Origin: Candidatus Latescibacterota bacterium
Lineage (GTDB): Bacteria > Latescibacterota > UBA2968 > UBA8231
NCBI GenBank assembly: GCA_965261395.1
Contig: OZ253462.1
Location: forward strand, 4,416,001 to 4,480,000
Direction of reading: 5' to 3'
Length of the DNA: 64,000 bases
Translations under genes and position numbers: made by a program
In this document: positions 2,981-41,598 of the stretch, piece by piece
How positions within the stretch are numbered: position 1 is the stretch's first letter
Layout: every line of letters begins with the position of its first letter
The notes under the pieces: generated by a model
The model's input: the letters and a program-made list of their open reading frames with translations, nothing else
What the model was told of the DNA's origin: nothing
The model's database searches: none

Positions 2981-3886
2981 TTATTGGATCATATAGCCTT
3001 TGATGCGACCCCAGCTATCGGCCTCGACAGCCGTATCTTCGCCGCCGCCGCCAGTGCCGCCCGTAGCGCCTTCGGTCTCCACCGTGATGAAGTCCGAGCC
3101 GTTCGAGTTGTCCTGGAATGCGCCGTTGACCGGCGTAGTGCCCGGCTGCTTCTCACGGCCGGTCTCGGGATTCTCGGTCTCGTCAAACTGGAAGGTCAGA
3201 CCGATGATCTGGTCGGAGGCAAAGTTGTGGCGAGCGCTGCCGTCGGGACCCGTCTTGTCGTGGAAGGTCCAAATGGCCTGCTTGACCTCGTAGGTGTAGG
3301 TCACCGAGCTACCAGCGGGCTGCTCCAGCGGACGGGCGTCCGGCGGATCGAGGGTCCACTCATAGACGAACCAAGGACGTTCGGTGGACCACAGGATGCT
3401 CTCCTGCGGCACGTTGAAGATCCAAGTGTCCTTCTGACCAGCGGCGGGCAGGATGCGGATGCCGTACTGCTGGCCGGAGATTTGTTCGGTCTCGTTGAAG
3501 TTCTCGCTCGAGTGGTCGGCATCGACGATGATTTCCAGCGAGTCGTCTTTCCAATACTCCTGGGGGTTCTCGACAAACAGGCCCAGCGAGTCATCGGTAA
3601 TTCGAGAAAAGTAGTAGAGCGAGTTGTCGGGCGCCGAACTCCAAGCCACGTAGAGAATGCAGTCCCAGTCGTCTTTGGCCGGCGGCCACTCACTACCGAG
3701 GATCTCGAACATGGTGTCGGGGTTGATGGCAAAAGCCGGATCAATCCAACCCCAGTCGTCGTCGTTGCCGTCGATGACCATGTTATCGGGATTGGGAATC
3801 TGCGGCGCGAAATAGTTAGCCTGGTGCGCGAAAGCGGCCGAAGCCGCCATCACTGCGACCAAAGCGAGAAGACTCAGTCTCTTCAA
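2981..3886 (-). CDS. Secreted CBM9/DOMON-like protein with C-terminal TAVE..SWG.IK motif
   Basis: TTG start with AAAGGAGG SD; signal peptide; IDGNDDDW and WKDDSLEI motifs; Gly-rich linker then TAVEADSWGRIK. Confidence 0.7.
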   Translation of the reverse strand: MKRLSLLALVAVMAASAAFAHQANYFAPQIPNPDNMVIDGNDDDWGWIDPAFAINPDTMFEILGSEWPPAKDDWDCILYVAWSSAPDNSLYYFSRITDDSLGLFVENPQEYWKDDSLEIIVDADHSSENFNETEQISGQQYGIRILPAAGQKDTWIFNVPQESILWSTERPWFVYEWTLDPPDARPLEQPAGSSVTYTYEVKQAIWTFHDKTGPDGSARHNFASDQIIGLTFQFDETENPETGREKQPGTTPVNGAFQDNSNGSDFITVETEGATGGTGGGGEDTAVEADSWGRIKGYMIQ

Positions 3887-31187: not shown

Positions 31188-33407
31188 TCAGAAGAATATC
31201 TTGTGCAGCAGGCGCAGATTTCGGCCTGGCTCGGGCAGGATCTCTTTGACGCGGTTGAGGTGGTTGCGATACACCGCGTCGGTGGCGTTTTCCAAGGTCA
31301 GGGCGAAAGTGTGCAGACGTCCCCCCCACTCCGCATAGTACTGACCTGAAAAATCCAGCACTGCGTAGCCCTCCGTAGGCTTTTCAAACTCGCCGATCCG
31401 GTTCTGCTCCGTGGCTAGGCGTAGAGCAATGGTCACACTCAGCGCCTCGGTGGGTTCGCAGGTCAGGCCTAGGTGCCCTTGCAGGGGTGGCAGACGCGGC
31501 AAGGGTTCGTCGTTGAGGTCAATGAGGTGGCCGCGCACATAGCTGAGGGTGCCGGCGGCCTTCCAGTAATCCGCCACGTGCCAATCGAAGGTGACTTCGG
31601 CACCGTGCATAAGGACGTGCTCCCCTACAGTCTGGTAGAGGAAGAGATCGGCGCGCCGCAGACTGCGCTCGCCGCTGTTTTTGGGGAAAATGTACCCGTC
31701 AATGGCGTTGCGGAAGACGGCCAAGTGTACATGGCCTTCTTCGTGGTGGTAGTCGACGAACAGCTCCAGTCCTAAGCCGCGTTCGCTATCGAGGGAACCA
31801 TTCCCCACCTCGTACGAATAGGCGGCCAAATGCGGCCCTTCGGAAAACAGCTCTTCGATACCGGGGGCGCGAAAGGTGCGCATCAAGGTCGTGCCGAGGG
31901 TCAGACCCGAGCTGGCGCGGTAGTGGTTGGACAGGCCGGCGGACATACCGGCAAAGTCGCGCGTCTGGATGCGGCCGACCCGCCGCGAGTCGCGTTCCTC
32001 GTGCGGCTCGATCCGGCGGGCGTCAACGCGCAGGGCCGCGTTGACAGCCCAAGGATCCTTCTCCCACTCTTGATATGTGAACAAAGCACCGGCGTATTCC
32101 TCGGCCGGTGGCGTAAAATTAAGCCCAGCCGCGGCATAGTTGCGGTACTCGTACCACAGACCAATCGCGCCGTTTGCAAAAGGCCCCATGCGATCCAAGT
32201 GAGCCAGAGCGCCGCTGTTGTGCGTGAGCACGCCGAACTCCATTCCCAAGTCGCCACTATCTTCGAATTCTCCGTGCTGATAGCGTGAAAACGAGTGGTG
32301 CAGTTCTAGGCGCTGGAGCCAGTCCGGCCCGGTGAGGATTTCGCCGCGCCCTTCGAGGTGCTGGCGCTGAAGATCAATGGATACACCGTCCGGGTGGCCG
32401 CCCTCTGGGTCGGGGGGAATGCCGTAGTCAGAATCGTACAAACTGCCAGACGCGCCCACGTGCCCCCAAGGGCGCACCAGACTCAGGCCGACCGAAGCAT
32501 TGCCCGTGCGGATGTCCGTATTGGCGAGTACCCCATGCGGCGTGGAAATATCGTCGGCATTGCGCAGACTGCTGTCGAAGCGCAAAGCCAGTGGGCCAAG
32601 CCCCTGTTCGAGGGTCAGGCCGCCGGACAAGCCTCGGTTGACGCTCTCCCCTTGATAGGTCACCGAGCCTCCGAAGCCGTCGGGCCGCTCGGAGGGCACG
32701 TATCCGCGCACCACGTTGACGACCCCGGCCAAGGCATTGGAGCCGTAGAGCAAGGTGCGGGGGCCGCGCACGACCTCAATGCGCTCGGTAGTCATCGGCT
32801 CAATAGCCACGGCGTGGTCTGAGGAGGAGCCGGACAAATCGCCAGTGCGCTCGCCGTCTTCGAGCATCAGCAAGCGGTCGCCCCCTAGCCCGCGCAGCAC
32901 CGGACGCGCGGGCGCAGGTCCCATCGAGCGCTGGGCAATGCCCGGCTCGTAGTCGATGGTCTCGGCAATGGTGCGGCTCAAATTCTGCCGCAGCTTGCTA
33001 CCGCTGAAGACGACTTCGGGGGTTTGCAGTGGAGAAACAGGACTCGTGCGTTCGCCCTCGACGAGAATCCCCTCTACGTGCAGGGACTCGTGGCCGATAA
33101 CCAGATCGACATGGGTGGTATCTCCGGCGACGACCTCGACCACGAAGCGCGCTTCGTGGTAGCCGACGTGTAGGCTTTGCAGGACGTACGCGCCGGGGGG
33201 TACGTTGGCGAAGAAGAAGTGCCCCTCGGCGTCGCTAACCCGCGCCCGTTCAAGCTCCTCGATGACTACGGTAGTCCAACCGACGGGTTGGCCGCTTTCG
33301 GCGTCAACCACATGGCCGGCTAGAGAGCCAGTCTGGTTATCGCTACCGGAGGCGGGTCCTACTGCCAAGCTGACGAGGAAAAGAGACAAGAAAACGCAGA
33401 GGCGCAT
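31188..33407 (-). CDS. TonB-dependent receptor, ZnuD-like metal uptake type
   Basis: Signal peptide, N-terminal carboxypeptidase-regulatory-like domain, RPVLRGLGGDR, SSDHAV, IEVVRGP, ELFSEGPH, C-terminal F. Confidence 0.9.
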   Translation of the reverse strand: MRLCVFLSLFLVSLAVGPASGSDNQTGSLAGHVVDAESGQPVGWTTVVIEELERARVSDAEGHFFFANVPPGAYVLQSLHVGYHEARFVVEVVAGDTTHVDLVIGHESLHVEGILVEGERTSPVSPLQTPEVVFSGSKLRQNLSRTIAETIDYEPGIAQRSMGPAPARPVLRGLGGDRLLMLEDGERTGDLSGSSSDHAVAIEPMTTERIEVVRGPRTLLYGSNALAGVVNVVRGYVPSERPDGFGGSVTYQGESVNRGLSGGLTLEQGLGPLALRFDSSLRNADDISTPHGVLANTDIRTGNASVGLSLVRPWGHVGASGSLYDSDYGIPPDPEGGHPDGVSIDLQRQHLEGRGEILTGPDWLQRLELHHSFSRYQHGEFEDSGDLGMEFGVLTHNSGALAHLDRMGPFANGAIGLWYEYRNYAAAGLNFTPPAEEYAGALFTYQEWEKDPWAVNAALRVDARRIEPHEERDSRRVGRIQTRDFAGMSAGLSNHYRASSGLTLGTTLMRTFRAPGIEELFSEGPHLAAYSYEVGNGSLDSERGLGLELFVDYHHEEGHVHLAVFRNAIDGYIFPKNSGERSLRRADLFLYQTVGEHVLMHGAEVTFDWHVADYWKAAGTLSYVRGHLIDLNDEPLPRLPPLQGHLGLTCEPTEALSVTIALRLATEQNRIGEFEKPTEGYAVLDFSGQYYAEWGGRLHTFALTLENATDAVYRNHLNRVKEILPEPGRNLRLLHKIFF

Positions 33408-33409
33408 CC

Positions 33410-33913
33410 CTAGCCTTCCTCATCGGCGTGGGAGTCCTCAGAGCCTGGACCGCCTTCTTCGACGTGGATTTCGATTTCCTTAGAGACGAAATCGGCGTGG
33501 CCTTCGTGGCTGATTTTGATGACGATGGTAGTCTGGCCTTCCTCTAAGCCGACGATGTGAAACGCCCAAGCACCGTCTTCTTCGTGATGCTCGACTTCGG
33601 CAATGCTCTCGTCGGCAATTTCCCAGTCGAGAGCGAAGCCTTCGTCTTCGTCCGGGGTGAAGAGGTCGCCATCTTCGGCGATAAAGCGCACGGACAGCAG
33701 GGCCGTTTCCAGGCCGTGGCCCACTGTAATTTCGCCTTCGACCTCGCCGTTTTCGTAGCGGACGATCTCCTCGCCGCTGCTGCGAACAATTAGGCCGATG
33801 GCCTCGGCGTGTTCTTCGTCGTGCTCGCCATCGACGGGGTTATCGTCGTCGCCGCAGCTAGCAATGAAGAGGACCAGGGCGAAGATGCTCAACGCGGATA
33901 TGCTTTTAAACAT
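33410..33913 (-). CDS. His/acid-rich lipoprotein
   Basis: Start MFKSIS after GGAG; lipobox IASC; EHDEEHAE, EHHEE, HEGHADF. Confidence 0.8.
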   Translation of the reverse strand: MFKSISALSIFALVLFIASCGDDDNPVDGEHDEEHAEAIGLIVRSSGEEIVRYENGEVEGEITVGHGLETALLSVRFIAEDGDLFTPDEDEGFALDWEIADESIAEVEHHEEDGAWAFHIVGLEEGQTTIVIKISHEGHADFVSKEIEIHVEEGGPGSEDSHADEEG

Positions 33914-34058
33914 GGTGCTAGTCTCCAATGGTTTGACCGTCCACACGCATTCCCCTAGGCGTTGCGCACAAGACGGGAATTTAATGGTACGCGAAAGATG
34001 GATATGGAGAGGGGCACCCACGCACTAAGCAGCTTACAAGCGTGGATGCACTAGCACC
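33914..34058 (-). promoter_or_regulatory. Structured intercistronic RNA sequestering the lipoprotein start region
   Basis: mRNA GGUGCUAGU (34058-34050) is complementary to ACUAGCACC (33922-33914); internal hairpin GCAUCCACGC/GCGUGGGUGC; CUCCA anti-SD. Confidence 0.65.
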
Positions 34059-34365
34059 GGGGCGGGCCTCGGTTGAGATGGGTAAAGCGAGGAGAAAAAA
34101 GGGGTAACGGTACTGTGCGCAGAGCGGACGGACTTGGCTCAGAGGCATTCAGCGCCACGAGCACGAGCGCCAAGCCCCCAAAAAGGAGCGATAGACCGCT
34201 CTGCAACAGGTAGGCCGGGCAGTGCTCAGGCTCGACGAGGCTCTCGTGGAAAAGCTGGTGGCTGAAGGGCAGGCCGCATAAAACAGCCACAAAGAGCACT
34301 GTCAGCGCCAGCAGGGCCAGCGAGTACACCGAGCCTATCGGGATGTCCGTTTTGCGCGTTAGCAT
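34051..34365 (-). CDS. DUF2946-like leader peptide with C-terminal RGPP motif
   Basis: Two hydrophobic segments flanking SHQLFH...EHCP; ends LNRGPPRC; upstream of lipoprotein and TonB receptor. Confidence 0.72.
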   Translation of the reverse strand: MLTRKTDIPIGSVYSLALLALTVLFVAVLCGLPFSHQLFHESLVEPEHCPAYLLQSGLSLLFGGLALVLVALNASEPSPSALRTVPLPLFSPRFTHLNRGPPRC

Positions 34366-34378
34366 GACCTTGGATTTT

Positions 34379-34406
34379 AGTATAGCGGTCCCCCTACAAA
34401 AAGCAA
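34379..34406 (-). promoter_or_regulatory. sigma70-type promoter of the leader-lipoprotein-TBDR operon
   Basis: TTGCTT-16nt-TATACT on the minus strand. Confidence 0.5.
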
Positions 34407-34603
34407 ATTCAAAAACTCGGGCGGTAGAGGCCTAGCGGAAGAGCGACTGCCGGGGTTTATAAGCAATGCCTATTTTCTTTATTATAGTCCAGCATCGTCT
34501 GCCATGCTTTGAGGAAAACTCTTTTTTCACCCATTGGGCAAAGCGATCCTGCAAGGTCGAACCGGACGCATAACTCTAAAGCCCTATTGGTAAGGGAGTA
34601 TCC

Positions 34604-35896
34604 ATGTTTGCTGCTAAATCATCTAGCAGGTACGTCTTCCCATTCTTGCTACTGGCCCTTTCAGCAGGGCTAATTCCTCTGGAACGCGCACACGCCGAGG
34701 GTATGTCGCGGATCAATGCTATCCGCTTGGTCGTCGAGCGCAATCCGGCCGTGGAAGCCGCCCGCAATGTCTATGAAGCCGCCCGCGCCCAAGCACAGCA
34801 GGCCGGTGCCCTACCCGATCCAGAGCTAGAGGTGGAGTTCGCAGAGGTCCCCGAGCTGGGCAGCTTGAGTGAGTATGGCGAGCGCACGATCGAACTCAGC
34901 CAACGGGTTGAATTGCCGCTGAAGTGGTGGCACCGCCTCCAAGCCGGTCGCCAGCAAGCCGAAGCGACTCGTCTCGCCGTCTTCGAGATGACCAAGCTCG
35001 ATATAACTCTCCAAGCAAAGCAGGCTTACGACCGCATCGCCCTGCAAAAGTCCCTTCTCCAGCACGCCCAGCAAGACCTCGACTTAGCGCAGAATATCCT
35101 GCGCCAAGCCGACATTCGTTTCGAAGCGGGCGATGTGCCCCAATTGGATGTCATGCGGGCCAGCGTCGAAGTCGGCCGAGCTACCAATCGCTTGACTGCG
35201 GCGAAAAACGATCTATCCGTGGCCAAGACCTCGCTCAATGCTCTCCTAGCCCGGCCGCTGCAAACTCCATTCGCGCTAGCTGACAGTTTGGTCTATCGGC
35301 CCGTTGAGACTCACCTCGACCAATTGACCGCAGCAGCCCTAAAGCAACGGCCCGATTTGGCGGGAACCGAACTGCAGCTAAAAGCCCTACAGAGCCAGCA
35401 GGCGGCAGCAACGGCGGCCTATTGGCCGGATCTGAATGTGGGTTTGAGTCGCCAACAGCGGCATGAAGGTGGAGGCCACGAGGAAAATTCCTGGCAGGTG
35501 CGTTTCGGCATAGAGATACCGCTGTGGGCCTTTTCCCGCCAGCGCAGTGAACGCGCCGAAGCCAAGGCCGAAGTAGCCAAAGTCGTAGCCGAACGCGATG
35601 TGGTGCGCTATCAAGTCCTTTTGGAAACAGAACAGGCCTATCTGGACCTCAATACCGCCGAAGAACAAGTGGCCTTGTTCCAAGACCAAATTCTACCCGA
35701 GGCAGAACGGGCATTCGAGGTGGCCGGCCGCAGCTACGACGAAGGCAAATTGACCTATCTGGAACTGCTCGAAGCCCAGCGCACTTGGATCGAGACGCAG
35801 ATAGAATACGCCCAGGTCCTGTTCAAGTATCGCGCGGCCACGGCTGCGTTGGAACGGGCCATTGCTGGTCCCCTGTCCGCTAATTCTGGAGAATGA
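34604..35896 (+). CDS. czcC: Heavy-metal efflux outer membrane factor (TolC family)
   Basis: ALPDPEL, RFEAGDVPQLDV, SYDEGKLTYLELLEAQR; heads a CBA operon. Confidence 0.85.
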   Translation: MFAAKSSSRYVFPFLLLALSAGLIPLERAHAEGMSRINAIRLVVERNPAVEAARNVYEAARAQAQQAGALPDPELEVEFAEVPELGSLSEYGERTIELSQRVELPLKWWHRLQAGRQQAEATRLAVFEMTKLDITLQAKQAYDRIALQKSLLQHAQQDLDLAQNILRQADIRFEAGDVPQLDVMRASVEVGRATNRLTAAKNDLSVAKTSLNALLARPLQTPFALADSLVYRPVETHLDQLTAAALKQRPDLAGTELQLKALQSQQAAATAAYWPDLNVGLSRQQRHEGGGHEENSWQVRFGIEIPLWAFSRQRSERAEAKAEVAKVVAERDVVRYQVLLETEQAYLDLNTAEEQVALFQDQILPEAERAFEVAGRSYDEGKLTYLELLEAQRTWIETQIEYAQVLFKYRAATAALERAIAGPLSANSGE

Positions 35897-37086
35897 AAAT
35901 GCGTATCTACACGACGAGCTTGGGAATTATTGGTCTGCTGACAGCTCTCTTCGCGCTAGGAGATAGTGCGGACTTTTCTTTTTGGAACCAGCCGGTTTGG
36001 GCTGCCGAGGAGGATCACGAGGAGGAGGAAGGGCTACAGTTGAGCACGGCGGAACGGACTGAATTTGGCATCGAGGTCGCCCAAGCGGCTGCGGGCCAGT
36101 TGGCAATTCAGGTGCATACGCCTGGAGAGGTGCAGGTCAATCCCGATTTGCTGGCTCACATCGTGCCTCGCGTAGCGGGAGTGGCTCGCCAGATCCACGC
36201 CAATATCGGCGATCAAGTTCAGCAAGACCAAGTGCTGGCCGTTTTGGAAAGCCAAGAGCTGTCCGAACTGATATCGGCCTATTTAGTAGCCCAGGAGCGT
36301 TTGGAACTGGCCCAGGCAACCTTTGACCGAGAAGAAACGCTGTGGAACCAATCCATCTCTTCGGAGCGGGTTTTTCTCGAGGCCAAAACCAAGCTGGCCG
36401 AAGCGCGTATTGACCTGCGAGTAGCCAAACAAAAACTCCTCGCGCTGGGCTTTGCGGCCGCCTATCTCGAAAAGCTGTCCTTCGACAACGACAATCGCTT
36501 TACCCGCTACGAAATAAGGGCCCCCTTCACCGGGACCATCATCTACAAACACATAACCCAAGGCGAAGTGCTCAAGGACGATTCCGAAGCCTTCGTGGTG
36601 GCCGATCTGCGTTCAGTTTGGGTCTTATTGACGGCTTATCAGAAAGACTTGCCCTTCCTGCGCATCGGCCAACCCGTCCACATCAAAGCCAGTCAAGGCG
36701 GCCCTGAGACCACGGGGACCGTAGACTATATCAGCCCCATCATAAGCGAGGCGCTGCGGACGGCTTCGATCCGCGTGGAGCTCTCCAACCCGGACGGCCA
36801 ATGGCGGCCCGGCTCCTTTGTCACGGCCACGATCGATGTAGAGGGCGTCGCTGTGCCTCTCTTGGTGCCCCGATCGGCTATCCAGATGGTGGATGACCAC
36901 TCCGTCGTCTTCATGGAGACCGACGAGGGATTTGTGCCCCAGCCCGTCCAGATCGGCCGCACCAACCCCACTCATGCCGAGATTCTCTCCGGGTTAGAGG
37001 TGGGACAGCCTTACGTCGCCCAAGGGGCCTTCATCCTGAAAGCCCAGTTGGCCAAAGGCGCTTTCGGGGATGGCCACGCCCATTAA
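35893..37086 (+). CDS. czcB: Heavy-metal RND membrane fusion protein
   Basis: IRAPFTG, VADLRSVWV, NPDGQWRPG; C-terminal HAH. Confidence 0.88.
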   Translation: MKMRIYTTSLGIIGLLTALFALGDSADFSFWNQPVWAAEEDHEEEEGLQLSTAERTEFGIEVAQAAAGQLAIQVHTPGEVQVNPDLLAHIVPRVAGVARQIHANIGDQVQQDQVLAVLESQELSELISAYLVAQERLELAQATFDREETLWNQSISSERVFLEAKTKLAEARIDLRVAKQKLLALGFAAAYLEKLSFDNDNRFTRYEIRAPFTGTIIYKHITQGEVLKDDSEAFVVADLRSVWVLLTAYQKDLPFLRIGQPVHIKASQGGPETTGTVDYISPIISEALRTASIRVELSNPDGQWRPGSFVTATIDVEGVAVPLLVPRSAIQMVDDHSVVFMETDEGFVPQPVQIGRTNPTHAEILSGLEVGQPYVAQGAFILKAQLAKGAFGDGHAH

Positions 37087-37107
37087 CCAGCGGAGAGGAT
37101 AGACCTG

Positions 37108-40100
37108 ATGATTGACCGCATTATTCAGCTAGCGTTGAACAACCGGTTGCTCATGCTGGTTTTGGGAGCAGTGGTCGTGGTGAGTGGTTATTACAGCTAT
37201 CGGCAGTTGCCCGTCGATGCCTTTCCCGATGTCTCGCCCAACCTAGTCCAGGTATTCACCGTCACCGAGGGCTTGGCTCCCGAAGAAATCGAAACCTACG
37301 TCACCTATCCCATCGAGACGGTGATGAACGGCCTGCCGAGCATCGAGAACATCCGCTCCGTGTCCAACTTCGGCCTCTCGGTCGTCAATATCTACTTTGC
37401 AGACGGAATAGACATCTACTTTGCCCGCCAGTTGGTCAACGAACGACTCCAAGAGGCCCGGGAACAGATCCCGGAGGGCTTTGGCGAACCCGCGCTGGGG
37501 CCGATTTCGACCGGCATGGGCTTGGTGCTGTTCTACTATCTCGAAGACACCACCGGCGAGCACTCGCTCGAAGAGCTGCGCACCATCCAGGATTGGTTGG
37601 TCAAATTCCACCTGCAAACCGTGCCTGGGGTCACCGAGATTTTGGGCATCGGCGGCTATGAGAAACAGTTCCACGTCGTGGTCGATCCCCACGCCTTGCT
37701 GCGCTACGGGGTGACGCTGCACAATGTCATCGAACAGATTGAAGCCAACAATCTCAACGTCGGTGCCCAGTTCATTGAAAAGGACGCCGAGGAATACGTC
37801 GTGCGCTCAGTGGGTCTGGCCTCTACGGTCGAGGATATCGAAAACATCGTCATCAAGGCCGGTGGCGGAACGCCCATCTTTCTCAACCAAGTAGCCGAGG
37901 TGGACATTGGCGGGGCCATCCGGCGCGGCGTGCAGACTCGCAACGGCGTGGAAGAAGTAGTGGCCGGCATGGTGATAAAGCTCTTCGGCACCAATTCCTC
38001 GACCGTGATCGAGCGGGTTGAAGCCAAGATGGAAGAGCTCAATCGCATCTTGCCCGCCGGGGTGCGCCTAGTACCCTACTACGAGCAAAAGACCTTGGTG
38101 GCGGCCTGCGTGGCCACGGTCACCAATGCCTTGATTCAGGGCATTGTCCTAGTCACACTCGTGTTGGTCCTCTTCATGGGTAGCGTCCGACCCAGCCTAG
38201 TAGTAGCCCTGTCCATTCCCTTTTCAGTGCTGTTTGCTACCCTCGGCATGCACTACTTCGGCCTCTCGGCCAACCTCATGTCCCTCGGCGGCTTGGCCAT
38301 CGCCATCGGCATGATGGTGGACGGCACCATTGTCGTGGTCGAAAACGTGGACCGCATCCTGCGCCAAGCCGAACCGGACGAGGGACGCATCCAGGTCGTA
38401 GCCCGCGCCTGCGTGGAAGTCGGCCGTCCCATCGTCTTCGCCATCGCCATCATCATTCTCGTATTCCTCCCCTTGTTTACCCTGCAAGGGGTAGAGGGCA
38501 AAACCTTCCGCCCTCTAGCCTACACTGTGGCCATGGCCATGTTGGGCTCGTTGATTTTTGCCCTGTTCCTGGCCCCGGTGTTGTCGAACCTGCTGCTGCG
38601 GGCACCAAAATCCGGGCGCGAAGGCACCCAAGCCAGCGAAGGCTGGATGATGCGTCGCTTGGTGGCCGCGTATCGACCCATTGTCACTCGCTTCGTCGCC
38701 CACCGCTTTTGGGCACTCGGCTCAGCGGGCATCCTCCTGCTCATCGGGCTGGTGATTTTTCCGCGCCTCGGATCGGAGTTTACCCCGGCCCTGCAGGAAG
38801 GCACCCTAGTCCTGCGGCTGACCATGGCCCCCTCCATCTCGCTCAAGGAAAGCACCCGCCTCACCATGCTAGTCGAGCGCCGTCTATTGCAGATCCCCGA
38901 AGTTACCGGCGCGGTTTCGCGCATCGGTCGCGGCGAAGTCGGCGCTCATACCGACCCCATCAACAACGCCGAGATGTTTCTCCTGCTCAAGCATAGGGAC
39001 CAGTGGCGCACGGCCCGCGACCAAGAAGAGTTGCGCGAGATCATTCGCGCCGAGTTGGGGGAAATTCCCGGTGTGCTGACCAACTTCACCCAACCCATTG
39101 CCATGACTGTGGATGAATTGCTCGAAGGGGTGCGGGCCGAACTGGCGGTCAAGCTCTTTGGGGATGATCTGGACGTGTTAAAACAGAAGGCCGACGAAAT
39201 CGCCCAAGTGGTCAACGCGGTTGCTGGGGCGGCCGATGTCCAAGTGGACCAAATAAGCGGCACGCCCCAGCTACTCATCCGGGTGGACCGACAGGCCATT
39301 GCCCGCTACGGCGTCAATGTGGCCGATGTGCAAAAGGTGGTGCAGGCAGCCGTGGGCGGCGAGACGGTGGGACAAGTGTTTGAAGGAACGCGCCGCTTCG
39401 ACATTGTGGTGCGCTTCGCCCCGCAATTTCGCAGCAGCCCCGAGGCCATTGCCCAAATTTTGGTCCAGTCCCCCAAGGGCGTCCAGCTCCCGCTGGTTCA
39501 GCTAGCCCAGATCGAAGAAGTGGTCGGGCCGCGCCAAATCACCCGCGAAAAGAGCCAGCGCTTCATCACGGTTCAGTGCAATGTCACCGACCGGGATATT
39601 GGCTCCTTTGTCGCGGACGCGCAAAAGGCCATTGCAGACCAAGTGGACCTGCCGCCGGGTTATCTGGTGACCTGGGGCGGCCAGTTCCGCCTGCAGCAAG
39701 AAGCCAACAAGCGGCTGGCCATCGTCGTGCCCATTACCCTCTTCGTGCTCTTCTTGCTGTTGTTTTCCAGCTTCAATTCGCTTAAAAACGCGACCCTTAT
39801 CTTGCTCAATATCCCGCTGGCGCTGGTGGGCGGAGTGGTGGCTTTGTGGCTGACCGGACAAAACCTGTCCGTGCCGTCCTCGGTCGGTTTCATCGCTCTG
39901 TTCGGCATTGCCCTGGAAAACAGCATGGTGCTGGTGACCTACTTCAACCAGCTCGTCCGCGATGGCGTGGACCTCGATGAAGCTTCCATCCAAGGGGCCT
40001 GTCTGCGGGTGCGGCCGGTGCTGATGACCGCCCTGACGACGGCCCTTGGGCTGCTTCCGCTGCTGTTTTCCAGCGGCACCGGCAGCGAAGTACAACGACC

Positions 40101-40248
40101 GCTAGCTACGGTAGTCGTCGGAGGCTTGGTCAGCTCCACCGTGTTGACTTTGCTGGTACTGCCGGCGCTCTACAAGTGGTTTGCTGTGCAACTGAATCAC
40201 GGAGAAGCAGAAGCGCTATTGGCGGAACGGGAAGAAGTGACCTTCTAA
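37108..40248 (+). CDS. czcA: CusA/CzcA heavy-metal RND pump
   Basis: LPVDAFPD, NLMSLGGLAIAIGMMVDG..VVVEN, RVRPVLMT, GSEVQRPLA. Confidence 0.92.
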   Translation: MIDRIIQLALNNRLLMLVLGAVVVVSGYYSYRQLPVDAFPDVSPNLVQVFTVTEGLAPEEIETYVTYPIETVMNGLPSIENIRSVSNFGLSVVNIYFADGIDIYFARQLVNERLQEAREQIPEGFGEPALGPISTGMGLVLFYYLEDTTGEHSLEELRTIQDWLVKFHLQTVPGVTEILGIGGYEKQFHVVVDPHALLRYGVTLHNVIEQIEANNLNVGAQFIEKDAEEYVVRSVGLASTVEDIENIVIKAGGGTPIFLNQVAEVDIGGAIRRGVQTRNGVEEVVAGMVIKLFGTNSSTVIERVEAKMEELNRILPAGVRLVPYYEQKTLVAACVATVTNALIQGIVLVTLVLVLFMGSVRPSLVVALSIPFSVLFATLGMHYFGLSANLMSLGGLAIAIGMMVDGTIVVVENVDRILRQAEPDEGRIQVVARACVEVGRPIVFAIAIIILVFLPLFTLQGVEGKTFRPLAYTVAMAMLGSLIFALFLAPVLSNLLLRAPKSGREGTQASEGWMMRRLVAAYRPIVTRFVAHRFWALGSAGILLLIGLVIFPRLGSEFTPALQEGTLVLRLTMAPSISLKESTRLTMLVERRLLQIPEVTGAVSRIGRGEVGAHTDPINNAEMFLLLKHRDQWRTARDQEELREIIRAELGEIPGVLTNFTQPIAMTVDELLEGVRAELAVKLFGDDLDVLKQKADEIAQVVNAVAGAADVQVDQISGTPQLLIRVDRQAIARYGVNVADVQKVVQAAVGGETVGQVFEGTRRFDIVVRFAPQFRSSPEAIAQILVQSPKGVQLPLVQLAQIEEVVGPRQITREKSQRFITVQCNVTDRDIGSFVADAQKAIADQVDLPPGYLVTWGGQFRLQQEANKRLAIVVPITLFVLFLLLFSSFNSLKNATLILLNIPLALVGGVVALWLTGQNLSVPSSVGFIALFGIALENSMVLVTYFNQLVRDGVDLDEASIQGACLRVRPVLMTALTTALGLLPLLFSSGTGSEVQRPLATVVVGGLVSSTVLTLLVLPALYKWFAVQLNHGEAEALLAEREEVTF

Positions 40249-40362
40249 TCAGGGCGTCTCGACCAAAATTTCGGCCCAGCGCCGTCTATAGCCTTATTCT
40301 TATATTTATAGCATTATAAGAGTCTTGTCGCCTTATCCCAATGATGCCCAGGAGGCTATTGA

Positions 40363-41598
40363 GTGACCTTTGAATTTCTTGGGATATTGACCAGTTTTTT
40401 CGACTTCCTCTGGTCATCCTTCCTGTTGCTAGCGCCCATGCTGTTGCTGGGGCTATTCCTTTCCGGCCTGATTCATGTGTTCATCTCCCGCCAGGCCATA
40501 CTCCGCTGGCTCCGCGACGACAGTCTAAAATCCGTAACCACAAGTTCGGCCATCGGCGTGCCCGTGCCGCTGTGTAGTTGTTCGGTCGTGCCGGTAGTCG
40601 CTGAGATGCGCCGGAAGGGCGCGTCCCGTTCGGCCTGCATGTCCTTCCTGATAACTGCGCCGGAAACAGGCGCGGACTCAATTCTAGTCACCAATGCGTT
40701 CTTCGGATTCGTCGTTGCCATTGTCCGGCCCGTCATCAGCTTCATCACCGCGGTCGTCGCCGGGATCTTTTGCATTGGCCTCATAAAAGACGACCGCGAC
40801 GAAGCCAAGGCGAGCGACCCCGACCACTGCCATGACTGTGAGCACGATCATGGCGCGCACCAATCCCTCATAGCTGATAGAGATGATTGCTACGTCAATC
40901 CCTCGCAATTGAAGGTGTTATTAGTCAACTGGTTGAAGGGAAATGCCACCAGCGATCCTTCTCCGGGCGATGTCTCCACAGACGATCAGGGTCTGGACTT
41001 CAAGAAGCTGGTCAAGCACGTCTTTCGCTATGGCTTCATTGAGATAGCGGACGACATTCTCTTTGCGCTGCTGGTGGGCGTTGCCTTGGGAGGAGTGCTT
41101 TTTCTGGCGATTCCAAGCGACCTGATGTCAAATGAGTATGCCCGCTGGCTATCCTATCCGATCATGGTGCTGATCGGCATTCCCCTCTATATCTGCGCTT
41201 CCGCCAGTACCCCGATCGCCGCCGCACTAGTTGCCAAGGGAGTCAGCCCCGGTGCGGCGCTGATTTTCCTCATGACCGGACCAGCCACCAATACGGGCAC
41301 CATCGCGATCATCGTCAGTCAGTTCGGCACTCGCTTCGCGTCCATCTACGTCGTCGCAGTCATCGCGGTTACGGTCATTCTCGGCATCGCCATCGACGCG
41401 CTGCTTCTGGCCGCTGGTCTGACAATTTCCGTGAACCTCGACGCCTCCCATTCGCCGGCTATTCAACTCCTGCAATGGGGAAGCGCTTTGCTCCTCATCG
41501 CTCTGATCGTCTGGCGCTTTCGGGCCGGTGCCCTGCGCAACGGCTACGAGGATATGCTGTTCAATCTTCGTTTCCGGTCCAGCACTAGCGACCGGTGA
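40363..41598 (+). CDS. DUF318-type metal permease
   Basis: PLCSCSVVP, APETG.DS, PLYICASASTP, GPATN; His/Cys-rich loop. Confidence 0.85.
   Translation: MTFEFLGILTSFFDFLWSSFLLLAPMLLLGLFLSGLIHVFISRQAILRWLRDDSLKSVTTSSAIGVPVPLCSCSVVPVVAEMRRKGASRSACMSFLITAPETGADSILVTNAFFGFVVAIVRPVISFITAVVAGIFCIGLIKDDRDEAKASDPDHCHDCEHDHGAHQSLIADRDDCYVNPSQLKVLLVNWLKGNATSDPSPGDVSTDDQGLDFKKLVKHVFRYGFIEIADDILFALLVGVALGGVLFLAIPSDLMSNEYARWLSYPIMVLIGIPLYICASASTPIAAALVAKGVSPGAALIFLMTGPATNTGTIAIIVSQFGTRFASIYVVAVIAVTVILGIAIDALLLAAGLTISVNLDASHSPAIQLLQWGSALLLIALIVWRFRAGALRNGYEDMLFNLRFRSSTSDR

Follow-up and report, generated by a model that had tools for sequence, protein, structure and literature searches.

The leader reading frame and its operon

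The stretch of DNA analyzed here (the window; 64,000 nucleotides of contig OZ253462.1 from a Candidatus Latescibacterota bacterium) carries, on the minus strand, a short upstream open reading frame (ORF), the leader, which is followed by a 137-nt spacer, a lipoprotein gene (33913-33410), and a gene for a TonB-dependent receptor (33407-31188). An earlier note on this DNA had described the leader as a 104-amino acid ORF consisting of a transmembrane (TM) segment, a loop, a second TM segment, and a terminal RGPPRC. This description was confirmed: the sequence from 34365 to 34051 reads as an ORF of 104 amino acids with the C-terminus NRGPPRC before TAG, and it is a genuine protein-coding gene, conserved in relatives, whose R[AG]PP motif, two or three codons upstream of the stop, does not vary. 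The last codons of the leader are complementary to the initiation region of the lipoprotein gene, forming RNA helix P1, which is accompanied by helices P2 to P4. The features of the locus are as follows (SD, Shine-Dalgarno sequence; KD19, the hydropathy value used).

34379-34406, minus strand: promoter-like element, TTGCTT (34406-34401), 16-nt spacer, and TATACT (34384-34379), seen in the sequence
34051-34365, minus strand: leader (upstream) ORF, candidate for a divergent DUF2946-like arrest peptide, with an N-in first TM segment (TM1), a periplasmic loop, a second TM segment (TM2), and PLPLFSPRFTHLNRGPPRC before the stop
34270-34329, minus strand: hydrophobic segment 1, covering approximately residues 13-32 (KD19 peak of 2.63, residues 16-34)
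34201-34269, minus strand: putative metal-binding loop (residues 33-55; LPFSHQLFHESLVEPEHCPAYLLQ), from family conservation
34150-34209, minus strand: codons of hydrophobic segment 2, about residues 53-72 (KD19 peak 2.05 at these residues)
34060-34071, minus strand: RGPP codons CGA GGC CCG CCC, the predicted arrest site, from conservation of R99, P101, and P102
34050-34058, minus strand: 5′ strand of P1, GGUGCUAGU (last two codons plus stop), at +8 to +16 from the first Pro codon
34014-34049, minus strand: P2 hairpin, GCAUCCACGC, loop, and GCGUGGGUGC, 10 bp with one G-U, directly 3′ of P1 (34049-34040 paired with 34023-34014)
34005-34009, minus strand: 5′ strand of P3, the anti-SD CUCCA, pairing with UGGAG
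33937-33976, minus strand: P4 hairpin, CCGUC..GUGCGCA / UGCGUGU..GGACGG, a conserved alternative to AUUCCC/GGGAAU
33911-33927, minus strand: initiation region of the lipoprotein gene, with SD UGGAG at 33927-33923 (3′ strand of P3), spacer ACUAGCACC at 33922-33914 (3′ strand of P1), and AUG at 33913-33911
33410-33913, minus strand: lipoprotein gene, 167 amino acids, lipobox IASC, rich in His, Asp, and Glu, with an acidic, His-containing C-terminal tail
31188-33407, minus strand: TonB-dependent receptor, 739 amino acids, nearest to the zinc receptor ZnuD by NCBIfam and PDB comparison

Basic residues (MLTRK) precede the first hydrophobic segment of the leader, and the loop between the two TM segments has the pattern HQLFH..EHCPAY. 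The TM segments were called from hydropathy (KD19) alone, and their placement in the membrane is a prediction. The C-terminal end of TM2 lies ∼29 residues from the predicted stall site (Pro101); after RGPP, two residues follow before the stop. A terminator-like hairpin, GAGCGGTCTATCGCTC followed by CTTTTTGGGG, is found within the TM2 codons (34186-34201, minus strand), one of four such sites in the region compared with 1.4 expected.

The promoter that had been assigned to the leader matches the consensus in only 8 of 12 positions, which is under the threshold of the scan tool, and was not called. What speaks for it is that TTGC[GT]T-16-TA[TA]A[CA]T, together with AAAATC.AAGGTC-ATG, is kept upstream of both leader copies within the genus. 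Since the element lies 13 nt before the leader ATG, the 5′-untranslated region would be very short. Scanning 33300-34700 against Rfam (E ≤ 10) gave three matches, all at chance level. In four RNA-library runs, short contigs of relatives (∼90-97% alike) cover parts of the leader and of the lipoprotein gene, but 33945-34059 is spanned by none of them, and two joints are less than 95% alike.

The leader end pairs with the initiation region of the lipoprotein gene

The 9-mer GGTGCTAGT (34058-34050) begins at the second base of the Arg codon following the second Pro codon and extends one base past the TAG stop codon. Exactly complementary to it is ACTAGCACC at 33922-33914, between the SD TGGAG (33927-33923) and the ATG at 33913, with 127 nt separating the two strands; the perfect complementarity claimed in the earlier note is thus real. 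The minimum free energy (MFE) fold of 33900-34085 (−60.1 kcal/mol; z = −2.42; matched by 1 of 200 shuffles) includes P1, P2, P3, and the AUUCCC/GGGAAU stem (33980-33975 with 33954-33949). The enclosed elements that had been predicted, a 10-bp hairpin with one G-U (P2) and a CUCCA anti-SD (P3), are both part of this fold. The predicted AUUCCC/GGGAAU stem is part of it too but is not conserved, the P4 hairpin (33976-33937) being kept instead. When the 13 nt before the AUG were shuffled, 50 of 20,000 shuffles equaled the pairing with the leader end.

Conservation within the genus was assessed with 29 distinct spacers (alignment A2), for which RNAalifold retained P1, P2, and P3. P1 was 98.5% paired, with one compensatory change from U-A to C-G (in locus L025), three G-U changes, and four mismatched cells. 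For P2, 99.3% of the cells were paired and two pairs were altered on both sides; P3 was 100% paired with UGGAG; and P4, comprising 13 pairs, had 89.8% of its cells paired and four pairs altered on both sides. Seventeen columns, UGGAGACUAGCACCAUG, stood out, 13 of them invariant and the other four at least 90% conserved, with the center of the spacer varying. The third codon positions within P1 are invariant, those of the five preceding codons vary.

Several relatives have acquired 100-150 extra nucleotides bounded by inverted ends (GGTCTGAAAAC...GTTTTCAGAC) and resembling miniature transposable elements. These insertions are always found in the hairpin loops of the spacer, namely, in the P2 loop of L004 (∼2985-3260), L007, L008, L014, and L018, and in the P4 loop of L009; the stems and P1 to P3 are intact.

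Beyond the genus, 36 further loci were cut out and the leader ends and lipoprotein starts located. Other genera have equivalent GUUCUCC:GGAGAAC anti-SD pairs. In many genera, the stop region pairs with the initiation region as UCCUGAGCAU:AUGCUCAGGA, that is, (U/A)CCUGAGCAU:AUGCUCAGG(A), reaching onto the start codon and codons 2-3, and L097 has a compensatory version of it, UUCUGAGCAU:AUGCUCAGAA. Other lineages use CGUUUCAU:AUGAAACG, or AUACUCCUG:CAGGAGUAU, which pairs with the SD itself, and L086 has a two-part version, UUCGCA..CUCUCU:GGAGAG..UGCGA. Pairing between stop region and initiation region thus recurs in at least four different sequence solutions. In all lineages, the distance from the start of the first Pro codon to the 5′ strand is 7-12 nt. 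The residues after the two prolines vary freely across lineages, their codons following the partner strand.

For a permutation test, one representative of each of nine sequence classes was used, including three without pairing, with a downstream window of −13 to +12. Mean duplex energy was −12.0 kcal/mol for cognate and −8.1 kcal/mol for non-cognate combinations, and 271 of the 362,880 permutations were as good (exact test). With a shorter downstream window (−13 to +3) and 12 lineages, P was 0.0006. The covariation proposed earlier as a check of the 9-bp helix is, therefore, present: the helix is conserved and co-varies across lineages that differ in sequence.

The leader belongs to a family distantly related to DUF2946

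Of 30 genomes of the genus, 27 contain the leader. Across the phylum, 53 of 168 genomes do: 50 of the 75 that belong to the same family as the window, 2 of 13 from a second family, and none of the others. The leader family is hardly found outside a single family of Candidatus Latescibacterota. Only 31 clusters were obtained at E ≤ 0.001 when 1.84 billion representatives were searched with a profile, and a search of a set of 5.8 billion proteins yielded 108 relatives, every one unnamed or annotated as “hypothetical protein.”

Within the genus, the leader is 70-90% conserved over all 104 amino acids. Among 36 close members, L32, H36, L38, H40, E45, C49, L54, L60, R99, P101, and P102 are invariant. 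Among 33 diverse members (alignment A3), this applies to H36, C49, P101, and P102, and nearly so to P33, H40, and R99; R99 is kept in at least 90% of them (two have KAPP), and the stretch from C49 to R99 is almost without insertions or deletions. The His/His/His/Cys metal site postulated in the earlier note did not withstand this comparison, because H48 is replaced by Asn in most relatives. What remains is invariant H36 and C49, nearly invariant H40, and position 52, which is Tyr in the window copy, His in most of the distant members, and Arg, Gly, or Cys in others.

Most genomes of the genus carry a tandem duplication in the order leader A, lipoprotein A, leader B, lipoprotein B, and receptor (e.g., L003, 1501-2998; L031, 3001-4993), the two leader copies being ∼1.1 kb apart. 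Leader B of the sister genomes contains HQLCH and CPAC, a true CxxC, often with insertions of HESH or HGSH repeats; the genome of the window has the A-type unit only. The lack of CxxC noted earlier is, thus, true of the window copy (C49-P-A-Y52) but not of these tandem paralogs. Altered leader ends, RGPPALVHPRW (a lengthened tail) and RPPPRR, occur in L022 (genome G025) and L026 (genome G015), both of which pair only weakly with the initiation region downstream (−10.5 and −6.8 kcal/mol) and may be decaying copies.

The window leader matched no Pfam or NCBIfam family. Of its 36 relatives, however, 21 match the Pfam model of DUF2946 (PF11162) at E ≤ 10, the best with an E value of 8.9e-5. The highest score, 23.4 bits for a paralog with CPTC, is just under the gathering score of 23.7 bits. 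All these matches are in one register, gap-free, with residues 43-102 on profile positions 58-117, ending at the two prolines. A precomputed PF11162 label is attached to 1 of the 108 database relatives, and no canonical DUF2946 protein scored above the cut-off elsewhere in the genome of the window.

Other hallmarks of DUF2946 leaders are present. The C-terminus has a RAPP-type motif, RGPP plus two residues, with R99, P101, and P102 invariant in 36 of 36. Forty-six residues lie between position 52 and R99; for CruR (Bp2923), this spacing is 45 residues and is kept within 1-2 across the family (PMC9426467). An N-in TM segment or export signal is predicted after the basic N-terminus, and the leader is the first gene of a putative metal operon with a TonB-dependent receptor and a long spacer, an order retained in relatives. 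Because 21 of 36 relatives match in a single register and because of the 46-residue spacing, we read the leader clade as a divergent branch of DUF2946 (CruR/CutF), of borderline membership by the Pfam score, in which CxxC is not the rule. The relation to DUF2946 leaders that the earlier note had drawn is, in this sense, upheld, the window leader appearing as a distant relative that lacks the second Cys.

The downstream genes

The mechanical ORF list gives the lipoprotein as a 203-amino acid frame starting from a GTG at 34021, inside P2 (33410-34021, minus strand). The conserved signal peptide, the SD, and the relatives identify ATG 33913 as the real start. The protein contains the motifs HAEAxGL, VGHG, EHHxEDGxWxFH, and NHxxHxDF and a tail rich in HD and HE, and some of its histidines are invariant. 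Sequence searches of Pfam, NCBIfam, and PDB gave no match, and its look-alikes in the Atlas are unnamed lipoprotein clusters only, in Ignavibacteriota, Fibrobacterota, and Gemmatimonadota. The same lipoprotein family is encoded within 520 nt of 66 of 79 leader copies (in the loci cut out, some represented twice). Of the 13 remaining copies, five lie at locus ends or have insertions, and two have the receptor directly downstream. In one family, f10, the lipoprotein is duplicated within a single protein of 293 amino acids.

For the receptor, ZnuD was the best of 25 NCBIfam families (8.7e-52, 176.7 bits), compared with 1.4e-22 for the TonB-copper family. ZnuD was also best in PDB (4rdr, 1.2e-32; OprC, 1.7e-13).

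Divergent from the leader, a heavy-metal efflux island (34604-41598, plus strand) encodes a CzcC-like OEP, a CusA/CzcA RND pump with an adaptor that resembles CzcB, NccB, and IhpB (only 58 bits as CusB), and a Cu/Zn exporter of the SO_0444 family. Island and leader locus share a 238-bp region (34366-34603).

A stalled ribosome may open the lipoprotein initiation region

The anatomy, borderline family membership, synteny, helix conservation and covariation, and footprint geometry were observed here, whereas arrest, binding of a metal, the kind of metal, and the polarity of the switch are inferred by analogy. The leader is probably a regulatory arrest peptide of the CruR/CutF (DUF2946) kind that heads an uptake operon of lipoprotein and ZnuD-like receptor and whose stalling frees the lipoprotein initiation region. 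During translation, the nascent leader would insert TM1 and thereby expose the loop, HxLxH..EPxxCPx[Y/H/C], to the periplasm. The ribosome would then come to rest on the RGPP codons while its P and A sites are occupied by Pro101 and Pro102, respectively. On ribosome-free RNA, P1 (9 bp) would be stacked on P3 (CUCCA:UGGAG), burying the entire initiation region of the lipoprotein gene. The stalled ribosome would occupy +8 to +16, that is, the 5′ strand of P1, so that spacer and start codon would be freed, the SD helix weakened, and the uptake genes translated. Upon release of the stall, translation of the leader would end, P1 would re-form, and initiation would cease. The release trigger would most likely be metal binding to the loop, altering the pulling force from TM2 insertion. 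According to force-profile work, pulling by a TM helix on an arrest peptide sets in at ∼29 residues between its C-terminal end and the peptidyl transferase center and ends at ∼45 (PMC9436324). Because the loop joins TM1 to TM2, metal bridging could set the force that releases the stall.

The geometry is consistent with this sequence of events. Arrest at RAPP or RGPP has been shown for CruR and others, and according to its toeprint, the stalled ribosome on CruR has one Pro codon in the P site and the other in the A site (PMC12992588). A ribosome with Pro-Pro in these sites would cover +1 to +16, which includes the whole 5′ strand of P1. The masking of this strand that the earlier note had proposed thus agrees with the geometry toeprinted for CruR. 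As in CutF-type control, a conserved anti-SD helix is present, with the 5′ strand of P1 within reach of the predicted stalled ribosome. When the footprint was forced to be single-stranded, the unpaired probability of −13 to +3 rose from 0.05 to 0.46, and in a fold with 21 nt of coding sequence added, that of the SD rose from 0.01 to 0.38. The comparison of folds with and without the footprint, which had been suggested as a check, therefore gives a partial opening of −13 to +3 and a smaller one of the SD. The predicted thermodynamics supports partial, not full, opening of the ribosome-binding site (RBS) on stalling.

Several observations weigh against this interpretation. With the footprint masked, the unpaired probability of the SD increased from 0.01 to 0.30-0.38 only, meaning that it is still 62-70% paired, because the CUCCA anti-SD (P3) can persist. 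In the fold with 21 nt of coding sequence added, the start codon lies in a weak local hairpin (unpaired probability 0.18 without and 0.17 with the footprint), and −13 to +12 opens by at least 0.15 in just 11 of 26 lineages. Within the genus, P1 shows a single compensatory change, alongside two to four mismatched cells, and pairing is weak or absent in L028, L029, L087, L074, and L026. Among 16-nt windows of the 64 kb, 166 of 15,996 (∼1%) match the pairing energy of the GC-rich leader end. Because the energy is unusual at the 1% level only, the case rests on position, conservation, and covariation. The window leader itself has no match to PF11162 (E ≤ 1; E ≤ 10 in a six-frame search of its own genome). 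The receptor misses the cut-off of the ZnuD family (NF038289) by far (176.7 versus 950 bits) and can be said to resemble ZnuD only. Zinc is suggested by circumstantial evidence, and for leaders of this kind, no metal but copper has been shown, in two proteobacteria.

With low confidence, the metal may be zinc or another divalent cation rather than copper, because of the ZnuD-like receptor, the Czc-type neighbors, the His-rich lipoprotein, and a sensor of two His and one Cys plus His or Tyr without CxxC. Tentatively, the leader could be the first arrest-peptide leader for zinc or another divalent metal, in which the metal would bridge the periplasmic HxLxH..CPx[H/Y] loop of a two-TM nascent chain and gate TM2 insertion and, with it, the force freeing the RGPP stall, the ribosome footprint acting as the anti-RBS strand. 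A literature search found no paper linking zinc with arrest peptides, and a search on TonB-dependent metal uptake in Latescibacterota or sponges found nothing on this locus. If true, the proposal would provide a protein-based metal switch where no zinc riboswitch is known. Nascent-chain arrest, so far demonstrated as a means of metal control only for copper and in two proteobacteria, would with this locus also be found in a candidate phylum without cultured members, with a sensor of His and Cys that lacks CxxC, and next to a ZnuD-like receptor that neighbors an efflux island for divalent metals. The RNA design would be explicit, the codons under the stalled ribosome complementing the initiation region of the next gene, and it appears to have been re-invented in several sequence versions. 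This complementarity makes the proposed coupling of stall and RBS opening directly testable by synonymous and compensatory mutations. The locus also points to an unannotated family of His-rich lipoproteins as partners of such receptors.

Alternative explanations

Sensor and arrest might be as proposed but the output mainly transcriptional, as in CruR: stalled and queued ribosomes would shield a C-rich loading site for Rho at the 3′ end of the leader, release would lead to Rho termination before the lipoprotein gene, and P1 and P3 would be secondary, serving, for example, pausing or stability. As the principal route, we consider this unlikely, although several features speak for it. A strong C>G bubble covers the last ∼25 leader codons (34060-34130; skew 0.43-0.62) and a second one is located in the spacer (33960-34030), and the model for CruR likewise puts the Rho utilization (rut) site of cruR into such a bubble (PMC9426467). 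The genome encodes Rho (667 bits; cut-off 509), and no intrinsic terminator was found in the spacer. However, termination by Rho leaves unexplained why stop region and initiation region co-vary in at least four sequence solutions, and why insertions of 100-150 nt are tolerated in hairpin loops only while P1 to P3 are kept. Both routes are not mutually exclusive.

That the ORF encodes a stable protein with two TM segments, for example, a metal-binding or signaling subunit working with lipoprotein and receptor, is less probable still. The helix would then only couple translation, RGPP would slow termination, and no sensing by the nascent chain would occur. This would agree with conservation over the whole 104 amino acids (70-90% in the genus), well beyond the C-terminus, with the two clear TM segments, and with the fact that P1 would melt under any ribosome reaching the stop codon. 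It is difficult to reconcile with the strong avoidance of RAPP/RGPP in proteomes, the exception being the C-terminal region of small exported proteins whose genes precede regulated ones (PMC12992588), with the DUF2946 motif spacing kept by the family, and with residues after the prolines that vary freely while their codons track the partner strand.

Finally, a fortuitous complementarity, with a spacer structure devoid of any regulatory role, is very improbable: the frequency of equally good 16-nt windows and the lack of pairing in several lineages would allow for it, but the specific positions, the invariant synonymous sites within the helix, the compensatory changes in L025 and L097, and the permutation test do not.

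Comparison with known systems

In SecM-secA and in leaders of the erm and cat type, a ribosome stalled in a leader ORF remodels the downstream mRNA and opens a sequestered RBS. The signal in these systems is secretion activity or an antibiotic rather than a chain-bound metal, and no sequence relationship to the leader described here exists.

ApdA, ApdP, and arrest peptides from Streptomyces lividans (PMC10951233; PMC12992588) share with it a C-terminal R[AG]PP, the small size, the secretory or membrane nature of the protein, and a regulated gene downstream. In these reports, those tested monitor Sec/YidC or come from Actinomycetota, and none is from Latescibacterota. TonB-dependent receptors are already among the genes enriched downstream of RGPP/RAPP upstream ORFs in Gram-negative phyla, according to a 2025 survey, whose main text mentions neither zinc nor Latescibacterota (PMC12992588).

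CutF of the Rhodobacter capsulatus cutFOG operon (PMC9973294) is, like the leader here, a DUF2946-like nascent exported sensor, with ∼45 residues between motif and stall, which places the sensor at the periplasmic face of the translocon. In both cases, an anti-SD stem covers the SD of the next gene, and in CutF, this SD-shielding stem is opened by the stalled ribosome (PMC9973294; bioRxiv 10.1101/2025.02.05.636593). In contrast to the leader of the window, CutF has CxxxC and a motif of the PPP type and controls a detoxifying oxidase. Copper prolongs its stall (ON at high copper), whereas the opposite polarity would be expected here. Furthermore, the 5′ strand of the shielding helix is here located within the last codons and the stop of the leader, inside the predicted stall footprint.

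CruR (Bp2923) of Bordetella pertussis, in which a copper-released RAPP stall controls the receptor through Rho (PMC9426467), differs in several respects. The leader of the window fails the Pfam model. Its CPAY and RGPP contrast with the CXXC and RAPP of CruR, its HxLxH is invariant, and it contains a second TM segment between sensor and stall. Its next gene encodes a novel lipoprotein, and the receptor is ZnuD-like and not OprC/BfrG-like. CruR works via Rho, whereas the conserved RNA feature here is a helix that sequesters the initiation region, and the hosts are Proteobacteria there and Latescibacterota here. Both have in common that a small exported or membrane-anchored protein is the first gene of an operon with a TonB-dependent receptor, that a Cys-containing sensor motif lies 45-46 residues before R[AG]PP, itself 2-3 codons from the stop, that a long structured spacer follows (162 nt in CruR, 137 nt here), and that a C>G bubble is found at the 3′ end of the leader. 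The logic of CruR, stall for ON and release by metal for OFF, would fit the uptake system of the window as well.

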